From an uncultured Gammaproteobacteria bacterium (GTDB lineage Bacteria; Patescibacteriota; Patescibacteriia; Buchananbacterales; UBA6539): 64,000 nt of DNA. The DNA is taken from contig CAZHUO010000002.1 of assembly GCA_964535715.1 (NCBI GenBank), forward strand, positions 16,916-80,915, in the 5' to 3' direction. Positions 5,268 through 17,666 of the stretch are shown here, piece after piece (the first letter of the stretch is position 1; the number at the start of each line of letters is the position of its first letter). Made by a program: the position numbers and the translations under genes. Below the pieces are notes generated by a model. That model saw only the letters and a list, made by a program, of their open reading frames with translations. It had not been told where the DNA came from and did no database searches.

Positions 5268-5366
5268 ACCCCGCACTAATTTTATAATCAATTTTATAAA
5301 TATATCTTTTAATTATAATTATTTAATAATAAATGTATGACTCAAAACACTAAATTAGTGCGGGGT
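5268..5366. repeat. 15-bp perfect GC-rich inverted repeat bracketing the start codon of ORF 5337
   Basis: ACCCCGCACTAATTT (5268-5282) / AAATTAGTGCGGGGT (5352-5366), 69-nt AT-rich spacer. It shares the 12-mer CCCCGCACTAAT with 15634-15645. Confidence 0.8.
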
Positions 5367-14308: not shown

Positions 14309-14484
14309 GTAGTATTAATATGTAAATTATTATTAAATCCTAAACTCTAAATCCTAAATCCTAAATTCCAATTCTCCAAACGTTTGGAATTTATAATTTG
14401 TTATTTAGAATTTATTCGCCGAAGGCGAATCGCCGCCATTGGCGGGCAAGCGCCTACGGCGGAGATATTAGGATTTAAAATTTC

Positions 14485-15216
14485 TTATCGGCCTTCTTTT
14501 TTATCAAACTCTTTATTTTGGATTTCAACCAGTGTCGCTTTCGGCACAGTATCAAATAATTCAATGACGTCTTTATTTATCATCCGAATACAGCCATGGG
14601 AAGCCGGCTCGCCGATAAGGCCTTCCTCGTTAGTTCCATGAATAAATATGCCCCTTTGAGCGGAATTATCATTTATTCCTTTTTCCAAACCCTCAAGCGC
14701 TAAAAGCCTGGTAGTCATTAAATCACTAGGTGCTTGGACGTGCTCGGTATATATTGTAGTTTTGCCTTTTTTGCTTTGTTTTTCAAAAACAGTCCCTAAC
14801 TCTGCATTGTCGCCGATTTTAGCAGATATGCGGTGAGTTCCAAAAGGCGTTTTATTGCTATTATTTTTATTGCTAATACCTTTGGCAGCGGTTGAAATAT
14901 TATATGATTTGACAATTTGGTTATCTTTTACAAGAAGCATTTCCTGACGTTCAGGGTTAATGACTATGGCGAATTCTTCGGGTTTTAAATTGAAGTTGCT
15001 GGTTAATTTTTCTACGCTTTCCTTGATTTCTTCCCAGATTTGCTCCGGCGTTCTTTCTTGCTCTTTTTGTTCTGCGTCAGCTGATTTTAAAGAAAGCAGT
15101 TCTTTGGCAGCTAAAGCGCCAAAAAAGGCCTGTTTTAAAAATTCACGACGAGTTGGCTTGTTATTTTTTTCAGTTTTAGATTCTTCCGTTTCCGGATTAA
15201 ATGTTTCTTTTTCCAT
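14485..15216 (-). CDS. L,D-transpeptidase (YkuD family) with a Tat-like signal
   Basis: [15 protein letters not shown]. Catalytic [23 protein letters not shown]. Confidence 0.85.
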
Positions 15217-15236
15217 AAGAAATAATGTAATTTATT

Positions 15237-15585
15237 GGCGACGTAGGGCGAGAGTCCCGCACCTATTTTACTCATCAATCATTTTCAAGATTAATTTTTT
15301 CTACAGTATAAAATAAATTATTTAACCTAAACAGTGATCAGTAAAATAGGTGCGGGATCTAGTTAAGCCGCTACGACGCAGGTTTAATTAATGAATCTTA
15401 TCGTGAAAAGGGAGCCATCAAAGGGTGAAATACCCGAAAGCGCTCCGTCGCCAAAGCGGTACTTATCCAGTTTTGACGCGTCAACGACTTGTCCCGATTA
15501 ATCCTTCGCCTTTGGCGGAGTGAAAAATCTTAGATCCCGTCTTATTCATATCTAATTATAAAGCGGGACTCCGTGGTTAATACCC
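15237..15585. mobile_element. 349-bp GC-rich structured non-coding insertion with a 6-bp TTTATT target duplication (MITE-like / mobile ncRNA candidate)
   Basis: The string ATAATGTAATTTATTAAATATATT-TGG is contiguous at 16122-16148. Here it is split after TTTATT (15231-15236) and resumes with TTTATT (15586-15591). Subterminal IR GAGTCCCGC / GCGGGACTC. An 18-bp stem at 15255-15272 / 15340-15357. Confidence 0.5.
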
Positions 15586-15600
15586 TTTATTAAATATATT

Positions 15601-15765
15601 TGGTCGGGCTGGGGAGATTCGAACTCCCGACCTCCCCGCACTAATGTCCGCGAATTGGCATTTTTGAAATTTAAAGTTAGATTAGCGCGAACACCGCCTG
15701 CGGCTGGTATTTCAAGAGATGAGACAAGATAATAGACATGGTGCGGGGCAGGCATCATCCCGAAC
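15601..15765 (-). pseudogene. Disrupted tRNA-Pro remnant (3' part only, interrupted by a 119-bp insert)
   Basis: 15601-15633 is identical to the CCA, acceptor, T arm and variable loop of the intact tRNA. 15753-15765 (catcatcccgaac) is a mutated anticodon stem/loop. No 5' half is present. Confidence 0.7.
15634..15752. repeat. 119-bp IR-flanked insert at the variable-loop/anticodon-stem junction of the tRNA remnant
   Basis: CCCCGCAC (15634-15641) and GTGCGGGG (15741-15748). The same CCCCGCACTAAT word occurs at 5270-5281. Confidence 0.55.
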
Positions 15766-15790
15766 TTAAGTAAAGCAATTTTTAATTCTC

Positions 15791-15847
15791 TCGGGCTGGG
15801 GAGATTCGAACTCCCGACCTCATCGTCCCGAACGATGCGCGCTAGCC
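15791..15847 (-). pseudogene. tRNA-Pro 3' fragment (D-loop to acceptor, no CCA)
   Basis: 57 of 57 identical to 16149-16205 of the intact tRNA. It diverges on both sides. Confidence 0.8.
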
Positions 15848-16123
15848 CCCGCCAGAGGCGGGTCGGCCTTTGGCGGAAGCTGCTCTAATAATTATATTAC
15901 GAACTTGTCTTCCAAATCCACTTTTGTAAAATTTTTCTCTCATAATAGCATCCTGTTCGCATAAGTATTTTTCAAAATATAATAATATTAGATGACCATT
16001 CTCACGTGTCCATTTGTTCGATTTCTGATTATGTTGTTTTAATCTGTCTTCTGGATTAATTTTTGAGTAACCGACGTATATCTTTCCATTTTTTATACTT
16101 TTTAAAAAATATACATAAAACAT
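15842..16123 (-). CDS. GIY-YIG nuclease family protein
   Basis: MFYVYFLKSIKNGKIYVGYS...RLKQHN...REKFYKS. The stop TAG (15842-15844) lies inside the tRNA fragment. The GC-hairpin-encoded tail is AASAKGRPASGGG. Confidence 0.75.
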   Translation of the reverse strand: MFYVYFLKSIKNGKIYVGYSKINPEDRLKQHNQKSNKWTRENGHLILLYFEKYLCEQDAIMREKFYKSGFGRQVRNIIIRAASAKGRPASGGG

Positions 16124-16145
16124 AATGTAATTTATTAAATATATT

Positions 16146-16222
16146 TGGTCGGGCTGGGGAGATTCGAACTCCCGACCTCATCGTCCCGAACGATGCGCGC
16201 TAGCCAGCTGCGCTACAGCCCG
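16146..16222 (-). tRNA. tRNA-Pro (anticodon CGG), CCA encoded
   Basis: CGGGCTG-TA-GCGC-AGCTGGCTA-GCGC-G-CATCG-TTCGGGA-CGATG-AGGTC-GGGAG-TTCGAAT-CTCCC-CAGCCCG-A-CCA folds as a canonical 77-nt cloverleaf. Confidence 0.9.
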
Positions 16223-16311
16223 ATAAATAGCGATTAACCAATAACGGTTAACAGTCAATTATTATAGTTTATATTCTTTTTAGTATAAAATCAAGTTTAA
16301 GCCAAAAAGAT

Positions 16312-16347
16312 AAGGCCGCGTCATTTTGCAATAACGCGGCCTTTTTT
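16312..16347. terminator. Bidirectional hairpin terminator
   Basis: AAGGCCGCG (16312-16320) / CGCGGCCTT (16335-16343), T-run on plus, ATCTTTTT on minus. It lies downstream of the minus-strand gene at 16364. Confidence 0.6.
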
Positions 16348-16363
16348 GCGGGTTTTGGGGGAA

Positions 16364-16786
16364 TTATTTTTTCATAGAATCCCTTACTCTTTTTCTAGCC
16401 ATTACAAGCCAGAACATCTCGCAGGCGCTTATGTTAAGCGCAATGCCGAGAATCATGAGTAATAATCCAAATATTCCCTTTTGGGATGTCAGTAATGGAA
16501 TCGCAACAAGTGCAATTCCTAAACTTATCTGACATGCCCACCAGTACGGGTATTTGCGTGCGATTCTGCGGTGCGTCTTATTGGTAGCATCGCAAAAAAC
16601 CAAGCTTGCATAGGATATGAAGACGCCTAACCAAATGATTAACGTCCATATCATGCAAAGCATAGCCATCTCGGAAATTTTGCTGTAACGATCCGGATAA
16701 AACCTGTAGACCCAGCCAAACAGCACCATTATGCCGAGCAGCGCACAACACAGCTTTCCCATTCCATTCTTGTAATACCTGGTCAC
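16364..16786 (-). CDS. Hypothetical four-TM membrane protein, compositionally atypical
   Basis: 140 aa. GTG start with AGGAG 7 nt upstream. Sampled 60-nt lines give 22-30 G+C per 60, against about 17-20 per 60 in neighbouring genes. Confidence 0.6.
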   Translation of the reverse strand: MTRYYKNGMGKLCCALLGIMVLFGWVYRFYPDRYSKISEMAMLCMIWTLIIWLGVFISYASLVFCDATNKTHRRIARKYPYWWACQISLGIALVAIPLLTSQKGIFGLLLMILGIALNISACEMFWLVMARKRVRDSMKK

Positions 16787-16973
16787 CTTTTTTCTCCTTT
16801 TTTTTCTGTACAGCCCTGTACAATTTCCTTATCCTGATGCCCAAGAATGGAACTTATAACTATATCATATTTTTAATATTTTGTCAATATTTGAGGTAAA
16901 AATTGGTATTTTGACCGATTTTTGATTTAGAGGTAGAATGAAATAGCTTTAATTTGTTAAAATTTAGCGTTTT

Positions 16974-17666
16974 ATGACCAAAAAACACAATTTAAGCCAT
17001 ATTGGTATTATTATGGACGGCAACAGGCGCTGGGCCAAAAATAAGGGCTTACCGACTTTGGAAGGCCACCAAAAAGGCTACCAAAAGATGAAAAAAGTCG
17101 CCAAATGGTGTATTGACCGAGGCGTTAAGATATTAACAGTTTATGCTTTTTCAACGGAAAACTGGCATCGCCAAAAAAACGAAGTTAATTATCTAATGAA
17201 TCTGTTACGTGATGTTTTTAAAAAAGATTTTGACGAGCTTTCCAAACAAGGAATTAAAATCAAAGTCATTGGCCAAAAAGAGCGCCTGGCTTCTGATATT
17301 CAGCAAATAGTTGAAGAAGTTGAATTGAAAACTAAAAATAATAAAAAATTGCTGTTTCAAATCGCTATTTCTTATGGCGGCAGACCCGATATTGTCCAGT
17401 CGGTTAAAAAAATTGTTTCTCAAAATATCCCCGTTGAAAGAATTACCGAAGATCTGATTTCCAAAAACCTTTGGACTGCGGGAGTTTATGATCCCGATTT
17501 GATTGTTCGGACTTCCGGCGAACATCGTCTGTCTAATTTTTTAACTTGGCAGTCTGCCTATTCGGAGCTGATTTTTATTAAAAAACACTGGCCGGAGTTT
17601 TCTGAAAAAGATTTAGACAAGATTATCGCAGAATATAACAAAAGAAGTCGAAGATTCGGCAAATAA
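16974..17666 (+). CDS. uppS: Undecaprenyl-diphosphate synthase (isoprenyl transferase)
   Basis: HIGIIMDGNRRWAK, YAFSTENWHR, IRTSGEHRLSNFLTWQSAYSEL. Confidence 0.9.
   Translation: MTKKHNLSHIGIIMDGNRRWAKNKGLPTLEGHQKGYQKMKKVAKWCIDRGVKILTVYAFSTENWHRQKNEVNYLMNLLRDVFKKDFDELSKQGIKIKVIGQKERLASDIQQIVEEVELKTKNNKKLLFQIAISYGGRPDIVQSVKKIVSQNIPVERITEDLISKNLWTAGVYDPDLIVRTSGEHRLSNFLTWQSAYSELIFIKKHWPEFSEKDLDKIIAEYNKRSRRFGK

Follow-up and report, generated by a model that had tools for sequence, protein, structure and literature searches.

Organization of the tRNA-Pro locus

The stretch of DNA analyzed here (hereafter, the window) comprises 64,000 nt of contig CAZHUO010000002.1, from an assembly that GTDB places in the Patescibacteriota (GCA_964535715.1). 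Its minus strand carries an intact tRNA-Pro(CGG) gene with an encoded CCA end (16146..16222), on which ARAGORN and Rfam (65.2 bits) agree with the sequence-only reading that preceded this analysis. The tRNA is followed by a 93-codon open reading frame (ORF) of the GIY-YIG family (15842..16123; PF01541, E = 4.8e-15), a series of partial copies of the same tRNA gene and a gene for an L,D-transpeptidase (LDT; ORF 14485-15216). The interpretation to which we incline, with substantial reserve, is that the tRNA-Pro gene was invaded by a minimal, homing-type mobile-ORF cassette that regenerates the tRNA; probably, the gene was invaded more than once.

Directly downstream of the tRNA, also on the minus strand, lies its native 3' flank, a contiguous 24-nt segment (16122..16145; AATATATTTAATAAATTACATTAT) recognized by sequence comparison with 15586-15600 and 15222-15236. 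The final two bases of this flank are the AT of the nuclease start codon, to which a G is added. The ORF then runs through a copy of tRNA positions 8-17 (15878..15887, minus strand; TAGAGCAGCT against TAGCGCAGCT, 9 of 10 identical on direct reading), which falls within its last 14 codons, and through a 30-nt GC-rich twin hairpin (15848..15877; TCCGCCAAAGGCCGA plus CCCGCCTCTGGCGGG on the minus strand, identified by sequence comparison), to end at a TAG codon (15842-15844) in the D loop of the next remnant. The latter comprises tRNA positions 18-73 without the CCA (15791..15847, minus strand) and, as originally reported and reproduced by alignment, is identical to 16149-16205 in all 57 positions; Rfam detects a weak tRNA at 15791-15861 (30.6 bits). 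The twin hairpin sits exactly between tRNA positions 17 and 18, in the D loop, with no duplication and no loss.

Further fragments follow on the same strand. A 25-nt filler (15766..15790, read on the minus strand), for which searches including BLAST against the loci fetched for comparison found no similarity, may be the last trace of an older cassette. It is followed by a copy of tRNA positions 31-43 (15753..15765, minus strand), described earlier as a mutated anticodon stem and loop and found here, by direct reading, to match the tRNA in 12 of 13 positions. The 119-bp insert previously noted at this point is present and is a separate, 118-nt long-hairpin element (15635..15752) that occurs in three copies in the window; it sits at tRNA position 43/44 of the oldest remnant. 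Beyond this element, the remnant continues with positions 43/44-76 and 15 nt of the native flank (15586..15634, minus strand), which alignment shows to be identical to 16131-16179 in all 49 positions, one more than the 48 (15586-15633) recorded in the sequence-only reading. The fragments are nested as serial events would predict. A 30-mer common to the tRNA copies occurs three times in the window and in none of 100 shuffles.

The remainder of the native flank forms the leader of the LDT gene (15217..15236, minus strand, by sequence comparison): it consists of the last 15 nt of the flank and TTCTT, and the LDT start codon at 15216 is directly next to it. The 15-mer ATAATGTAATTTATT, already noticed as occurring twice in the window, indeed does so (0.14 copies are expected, and two copies were reached in 1 of 100 shuffles), and the repeat extends to 21 of 23 positions. 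This repeat is meaningful because 16122-16145 is one contiguous tRNA 3' flank, both ends of which recur, the first 15 nt at 15586-15600 and the last 15 nt at 15222-15236. Judging from these sequences, the 15-mer repeat appears to be duplicated native flank that was split later by a 349-nt insertion (15237..15585). The two pieces of the flank overlap by AATAAA, which indicates that the 349-nt block was inserted, duplicating 6 bp of target sequence (TTTATT at 15231-15236 and 15586-15591), into a once short spacer between the tRNA and the LDT gene.

Upstream of the tRNA, by approximately 39 nt, a promoter-like site, TTTATA-17-TATAAT (16261..16289, minus strand), was picked up by a consensus scan; the same kind of scan found no terminator-like site on the minus strand between the promoter-like site and tRNA-Pro on one side and the LDT gene on the other. 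This geometry suggests that the ORF may be expressed by read-through from the tRNA promoter, with a leaderless start after tRNA 3' processing and with a stop codon that would be lost upon RNase P cleavage.

The GIY-YIG protein

The match of the window protein to PF01541 (56.1 bits) is well above the curated cut-off of 22.6. The conserved GIY-YIG domain occupies approximately codons 1-79; the remaining 14 residues lie beyond the conserved part and include the tail SAKGRPASGGG, which is the translated twin hairpin. In the alignment of the window protein with 11 homologues, the catalytic residues Y5 (Tyr of GIY), Y16 and G18 (Tyr-x-Gly of YIG), R27, H31 and E63 are invariant in all 12 sequences; their counterparts in I-TevI are Y6/Y17/R27/E75. 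The nearest solved structures are UPF0213 proteins (1ywl, E = 1.1e-7; 1zg2, E = 2.7e-7), with matches over nearly the full length, followed by SLX1 (E = 7.7e-4). Like the UPF0213 proteins (approximately 80-100 aa), to which it shows the closest similarity, the window protein consists of a single domain, and its best 150 relatives are mostly 70-130 aa long. The family is large, with 2,996 clusters at 50% identity at E <= 1e-10; an exact look-up of the window protein itself returned no record. PHROGs contained no family that matches it at E <= 0.001, PADLOC yielded weak matches only, and the match to TIGR01453 (21.8 bits, E = 1.5e-4) falls below the cut-off of 56.

The DNA-binding domain that a homing endonuclease would be expected to carry was not found in the 93-aa protein. 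Together with the kinship to UPF0213 and SLX1, this absence favours recognition of a DNA structure, rather than of a long sequence, by the GIY-YIG protein. Many of the 150 family representatives (P0016-P0165) are extended at the N terminus by 20-55 residues, and two domains are present in a few. These are probably gene-calling artefacts, the former caused by read-through of upstream tRNA and hairpin remnants and the latter by fusion of tandem units.

Recurrence of the architecture in related loci

For comparison, 80 loci were fetched from species-representative genomes using two peptide patterns only. Most of these come from Patescibacteria and some are labelled Omnitrophota, Elusimicrobiota, Acidobacteriota or Flavobacteriaceae, labels that may be unreliable for some third-party bins. 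In 56 of the 80, ARAGORN detects an immediately adjacent tRNA that shares the strand of the ORF: the tRNA follows the ORF in 44 loci and precedes it in 10, and tRNAs lie on both sides in 2. Among the other 24, the tRNA is cut by the contig end in 3 and a group I intron is present in 5; others consist of tandem units or contain further fragments between ORF and tRNA. Altogether, at least 64 of the 80 loci have the ORF and a tRNA immediately next to each other on one strand. In 46 of them, the ORF runs into the intact tRNA (type A), and in 12 the tRNA comes first (type B), the two loci that show both arrangements being counted twice. Twenty anticodons are represented. The exceptions include a distinct clade (L072, L076, L078 and L081) with no adjacent tRNA, three members of which also lack the hairpins.

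The coupling between the ORF and the tRNA is tight. The stop codon of the ORF is the tRNA's own U8-A9-G10 (UAG, positions 8-10) in 16 loci and lies in the D loop in 8, and in type B loci, the distance from the tRNA 3' end to the start codon ranges from -1 to 42 nt, the A of the CCA being used in one case. The side opposite to the intact tRNA typically carries a fragment of the same tRNA, usually interrupted by a hairpin. In type A loci, this remnant extends from position 1 to about 17-35, carries the hairpin and lies upstream of the ORF; in 34 of the 46 such loci, the fragment starts at position 1 and ends at approximately 12-37. The window belongs to type B, with the working tRNA upstream and the remnant (8-17, hairpin, 18-73) downstream of the ORF. 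Its order of parts, namely tRNA 1-76 with the flank, ORF and remnant 8-73, is that of mobile ORFs (mORFs) of fungal mitochondria. The proposal of the sequence-only reading that repeated insertion regenerated the tRNA and left orphan fragments is supported in its core by comparison with most of the 80 loci, as an invasion linked to the nuclease and not to an integrase. Across the family, duplication of the 5' part of the tRNA is commoner than that of the 3' part.

Group I introns lie directly after the nuclease ORF in five loci (L027, 2842-3073; L034, 748-1102; L052, 1406-1648; L062, 2760-3027; L064, 2761-2995), starting about 170-340 nt from the ORF start, and most likely reside in tRNA-Asn genes. 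In Patescibacteria, the published site of group I introns in tRNA-Asn is 35/36, and several tRNA-Asn remnants upstream of nuclease ORFs end at position 35; this coincidence suggests that GIY-YIG nucleases and tRNA introns may be historically linked. In L005, the tRNA upstream of the ORF (2414-2499) contains an 11-nt internal duplication, GGCTAGAGCAT, in the D-arm region, because of which ARAGORN calls tRNA-Cys; the duplication could be a footprint or else a slip of the assembly. The gene for P0012, a distant homologue (42% identity), lies between the genes of a type IV secretion-like operon (L212-L221), next to small 23S_rRNA_IVP (four-helix-bundle) genes and with no tRNA adjacent.

The twin hairpin

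The twin-hairpin module consists of two 15-nt units and is quasi-symmetric, with an A-N-A sequence in loop 1 and T-N-T in loop 2, so that either strand reads alike. Hairpins with a 6-bp stem and the CC-NNN-GG pattern adjoin the ORF in 74 of the 80 loci; 123 are found in the 100 nt upstream of the ORF compared with 0.23 per kb at more than 400 nt, an enrichment of approximately 65-fold over the 80 loci. The distant CC-NNN-GG hairpins are mostly not of the GC-rich type.

Insertion sites were analyzed in the 28 cases, including the window, in which both flanks could be placed on the neighbouring tRNA. Of these inserts, 26 are exactly 30 nt long, with neither duplication nor deletion, and 25 of the 26 follow a T. 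The positions are few: 17/18 (13 cases), 8/9 (4), 12/13 (3), 28-32 (5) and 52/53 (1). Two Acidobacteriota loci have tRNA positions 26-37 replaced by a single 15-nt hairpin.

The module is also translated. Some homologues of the window protein keep the tail SAKGGPASGGG, which is a translation of the twin hairpin, and twin hairpins are found in frame within alaS, a uvrC-like gene and a dnaG-like gene, in each case at a distance of over 1.7 kb from the nuclease gene. The in-frame sites are at 379-450 in L070, about 524-553 in L049 and about 748-777 in L051; they add 10-20 residues of SAKGG-type peptide, and the context of the insert in alanyl-tRNA synthetase is FLDFF[SAKGGSPPKADGPLAHASGG]KGH. By structure, the hairpin inserts fit the description of palindromic or double-hairpin repeats (double-hairpin elements, DHE; Rickettsia palindromic elements, RPE; REP), with which they share no sequence homology. 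In the window itself, three tandem GC-rich hairpins lie at 14416-14465, approximately 20-70 nt past the LDT stop codon; they look like 15-nt units of the nuclease cassette, and an artefactual 85-aa ORF reads through them.

Signs of movement

Related nucleases are found at different tRNAs. One nuclease clade mixes tRNAs for Val, Pro, Ala and Asp, and another mixes those for Asn, Ala, Val, Ile, Met, Pro, Phe and Arg; both arrangements, with the tRNA after and before the ORF, occur within one clade. Three genomes have two loci each, at different tRNAs, tandem units are present in L035, L079, L080 and L015, and the contig ends just beyond the ORF at many of the 80 loci. Sequence differences between remnant and working tRNA, extending even to the acceptor stem, are seen in L002, L020 and L021 and are the signature of a replaced gene part; 17 of the 34 fragments that start at position 1 carry mismatches.

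Strain polymorphism is apparent at the P0007 locus, for which contigs from four samples share the same flanks. Two of these (L209 and L210) contain, between the intact tRNA and the native flank, an extra spacer of approximately 33-45 nt and a full-length, hairpin-interrupted tRNA that are absent from L211. A single recombination event between 58-nt repeats is enough to convert one state into the other.

Proposed mechanism and alternative explanations

Under the cassette interpretation, the mobile unit would be approximately 240 nt long and would consist of the 30-nt twin hairpin, a piece of the target tRNA and the GIY-YIG ORF, which lacks its own stop codon and has next to no leader. It would enter a tRNA gene at a single site, the site of the hairpin, which here and most often is position 17/18 in the D loop. 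One of the resulting junctions would be seamless and the other capped by the hairpin, leaving a dead remnant; the seamless junction would preserve a working tRNA, the matching portion of which is brought in by the element. The element would then have the order hairpin, tRNA 18-n, spacer, ORF, tRNA 1-17 in the tRNA-after form, and tRNA 18-76 with flank, ORF, tRNA 8-17, hairpin in the tRNA-before form seen in the window. The predicted empty junction is a tRNA directly followed by AATATATTTAATAAATTACATTATTTCTTATG.

The putative nuclease would break the uninvaded tRNA gene, and repair from the invaded allele would copy the whole structure, that is, homing would occur. Alternatively, the repair pathway might involve recombination between tRNA repeats, resulting in segmental duplication as for phage SegB. 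If the repair were templated by the remnant alone, only the 30-nt hairpin would be copied, which would explain both the exact 30-nt inserts and the full-length interrupted copies. Since the regenerated tRNA would keep the target, repeated hits would be possible, giving rise to nested remnants, perhaps including the older 31-76 fragment in the window; the order of events at the locus is a reconstruction.

Several observations weigh against this interpretation. In a protein devoid of a DNA-binding domain, sequence-specific homing would not be obvious, and if the regenerated tRNA keeps the presumed target, self-immunity has no explanation. The twin hairpins far from any nuclease gene may point to an independent life of the hairpins. 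The polymorphism at the P0007 locus affects a tRNA copy rather than the nuclease gene. Even the closest relatives share only about 60-69% identity with the window protein, so there is no sign of recent transfer, and the identity between the window tRNA and the 57-nt remnant may reflect local duplication or gene conversion. Finally, uninvaded alleles, for which the sequence-only reading proposed a comparison with related genomes, were not found for the window species by exact-protein look-ups or by two metagenome scans. Look-up of the LDT and its 90% cluster retrieved only short Logan contigs that end inside the 349-nt element, and look-up of the membrane protein retrieved one contig that ends in the tRNA. 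The metagenome scan with the LDT produced no match, and that with a 31-nt tRNA 3' pattern produced 120 high-GC actinobacterial tRNA-Pro loci unrelated to the window organism.

The main alternative, a rather improbable one in our estimate, is that the true mobile unit is the 30-nt twin hairpin itself, moved by the GIY-YIG protein in the manner of REP/RAYT. The hairpin would prefer tRNA loops after a T, and only hits in redundant copies would survive, so that remnants would come to surround the nuclease gene. Inserts of exactly 30 nt without target duplication at a few defined tRNA positions are compatible with such a mode of transposition, as are the in-frame modules in alaS and in the uvrC-like and dnaG-like genes, located over 1.7 kb away from the nuclease gene, the approximately 65-fold enrichment of hairpins adjoining the ORF, the hairpins nested within the loops of other hairpins in L050, and the presence of the structure-specific nuclease SLX1 among the solved relatives. 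However, this scenario accounts neither for the precise fusion of the ORF to tRNA ends nor for the occasional sequence differences between remnant and working tRNA, and the identical hairpin copies within L209 fit duplication of a copy already hit better than separate hits. In addition, we know of no GIY-YIG transposase.

A tentative extension, less likely than the cassette interpretation as such, combines the nuclease and the hairpin: the minimal GIY-YIG nuclease and the 30-nt twin hairpin might represent an unrecognized class of bacterial mobile elements. Such elements would insert after T, without target-site duplication, into those parts of tRNA genes that encode loops; the hairpin by itself would insert in frame into protein-coding genes; and the element would be retained by tRNA-gene addiction, with the resident copy disabled and the only working copy supplied by the element.

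Less credible still is the possibility that the ORF is a non-mobile host gene in tRNA operons, with a tRNA-linked or DNA-repair role, the tRNA pieces having originated by local tandem duplication and decay and the hairpins serving as processing, terminator or insulator signals. The orientation of the ORF, always that of the tRNA, and the tight coupling of starts and stops would be natural for such a gene, and so would the breadth and age of the family with its conserved catalytic residues, the identity of the repeats in the window, native flank included, and the failure to find an empty site. A host gene is nevertheless hard to reconcile with the 20 anticodons and the location of related proteins at different tRNAs, with the presence of two loci in some genomes, with tandem units and strain polymorphism, with the many contigs that end right at such loci, with ORFs that have neither a stop codon nor a leader of their own, or with the occurrence of the same hairpins inside unrelated protein-coding genes.

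The fragments might also be viewed as attL/attR scars of decayed integrase islands at the 3' end of tRNA-Pro, with the nuclease as an incidental passenger, a scenario that we consider very improbable and reject. Direct repeats of the 3' part of a tRNA together with a regenerated tRNA are a hallmark of such islands, and the actinobacterial tRNA-Pro loci fetched here include orphan 3' halves of the att kind. The latter, found after unrelated sequence in L087, L097, L099, L111, L116, L149 and others, derive from tRNA-Pro(GGG) and are typical att-type remnants of integrative elements, unrelated to the window organism. In the window, however, the block between the repeats is only approximately 560 nt long and contains no integrase: as previously stated, the 93-aa GIY-YIG ORF is the only enzyme gene between the repeats. 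Nor was an integrase found among the neighbours characterized within approximately 4 kb on either side (LDT, a Reg_prop protein, PFOR, UppS and MgsA), which were surveyed using the window ORFs together with genes predicted on contigs from this strain or a close one. Furthermore, the repeats start at positions 8, 18 and 31 and have no common core, the 5' part of the tRNA is duplicated in most related loci, and the fusion of hairpin and ORF recurs in about 70 unrelated loci.

An assembly artefact caused by mis-joined or duplicated reads at the tRNA is the least plausible explanation and is rejected, even though the window comes from a metagenome-assembled contig and short-read assemblies break at tRNA repeats, given that the same architecture is found in about 70 loci from many projects and assemblers, that the copies differ informatively (by the hairpin, the long-hairpin element and the 349-nt insertion), and that a contig from another run breaks where a real boundary of the 57-nt repeat predicts. 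The contig in question, L202 from Logan, ends at window position 16176 and so extends exactly 30 nt beyond the unique sequence that precedes the 57-nt repeat, a length that fits a break in a graph with k=31, presumably the value used in Logan.

If the cassette interpretation is correct, a large family of very compact selfish cassettes resides in the tRNA genes of Patescibacteria and of some other phyla. These would create tRNA pseudogenes, break assemblies and mislead tRNA and gene callers, add SAKGG-type tails and N-terminal extensions to predicted proteins, and might swap tRNA alleles between lineages. There would then be a connection between a nuclease of the structure-specific type and a defined 30-nt hairpin, which is also inserted in frame in essential proteins. 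The small size of the system makes it amenable to direct in vitro study.

Other insertions in the locus

The 349-nt insertion (15237..15585), delineated by sequence reading and folding, is a GC-rich, strongly structured, non-coding element that folds much better than shuffled sequences on both strands (z = -5.4 and -5.9). The possibilities that it is a tmRNA, an RNase P RNA, a group I intron or a riboswitch found no support in Rfam, which detected nothing other than tRNA over 14400-17000. A decayed nuclease gene or other coding signal was sought in 15237-15790, with matches at chance level only, and when all fetched loci were searched by BLAST with the 349-nt element and with the 156-nt spacer, there were no matches outside the species. 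The first 24-35 nt of the insertion are present in six contigs from the LDT side that come from six sequencing runs. The insertion could be a structured RNA gene, a leader of LDT or a non-autonomous mobile element.

The long-hairpin elements, which resemble miniature inverted-repeat transposable elements, form a separate family with three copies in the window, each roughly 95-118 nt long, that have the common termini CCCCGCACTAATTTTA ... TAAAATTAGTGCGGGG. All were delineated by sequence comparison. The 118-nt copy inside the oldest tRNA remnant has the termini CCCCGCAC...GTGCGGGG, another copy is nested inside the 349-nt insertion (15254..15357), and the third lies apart from the locus (5270..5364).

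Comparison with known systems

No description of the combined nuclease, tRNA and hairpin architecture was found in the literature searched, coverage of which was incomplete, and this layout is apparently undescribed. By sequence, the nearest relatives among proteins with solved structures are UPF0213 (YhbQ/YazA-type) and SLX1, and the window protein shares with the former the single-domain size of approximately 90 aa. To our knowledge, and in the literature searched, neither a tRNA-embedded context nor an association with hairpins has been described for these proteins.

Integrative islands that employ a tyrosine integrase and target tRNA genes resemble the cassette in producing direct repeats of a part of the tRNA and in regenerating the tRNA. 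In contrast to these islands, the cassette has no integrase and a cargo of 0.3 kb, mostly duplicates the 5' part of the tRNA, and leaves a displaced copy interrupted by a hairpin.

Rickettsia palindromic elements are located in frame in protein-coding genes. Double-hairpin elements are found in fungal mitochondrial DNA and repetitive hairpin elements in sponge mitochondria (PMC10085805, PMC2800124). All these elements are, like the twin hairpin, short, GC-rich, multicopy, two-hairpin structures that occur in RNA genes and for which no transposase is known. The twin hairpin differs in that its sequence is unrelated to theirs, it is only 30 nt long, and it is tied to one nuclease family and to defined tRNA positions.

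Among the closest known systems are the mORFs of fungal mitochondria (atp6 of Allomyces and the atp6/atp9/cox2/nad3 hybrids of Glomus), which combine an endonuclease ORF with a replacement gene end and leave the native gene end downstream as a remnant (PMC3630166). As in the cassette, the ORF can be in phase and lack a stop codon of its own, and the replacement and native parts can differ, as they do in L002, L020 and L021; with respect to a foreign replacement, those three loci show such differences whereas the window copies are identical at 57 of 57 positions. Unlike the cassette, which targets a tRNA, mORFs target protein-coding genes of organelles, their nucleases are mostly of the LAGLIDADG family and much larger than the window nuclease, and they replace the 3' end only, whereas the cassette loci include both 5' and 3' versions.

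The free-standing GIY-YIG homing endonuclease SegB of phages T4 and T6, encoded in a tRNA gene cluster, cleaves inside tRNA genes, colocalizes with tRNAs of many isotypes and, via homologous recombination, promotes the inheritance and segmental amplification of adjacent tRNA DNA (PMC2330249, PMC13096335). SegB and the nuclease family of the window protein are alike in the GIY-YIG catalytic domain, in the location of the gene at tRNA genes and in the association with many tRNA isotypes. The two proteins, however, show no detectable similarity (there is no PHROGs match at E <= 0.001, and TIGR01453 is below the cut-off), and SegB is associated neither with a twin hairpin nor with an ORF fused to tRNA ends or stable, hairpin-interrupted tRNA remnants. 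SegB is also more than twice as long as the window nuclease and has a C-terminal DNA-binding region. If the cassette interpretation holds, the system identified here would be a bacterial chromosomal counterpart of both the mitochondrial mORFs and the phage SegB.

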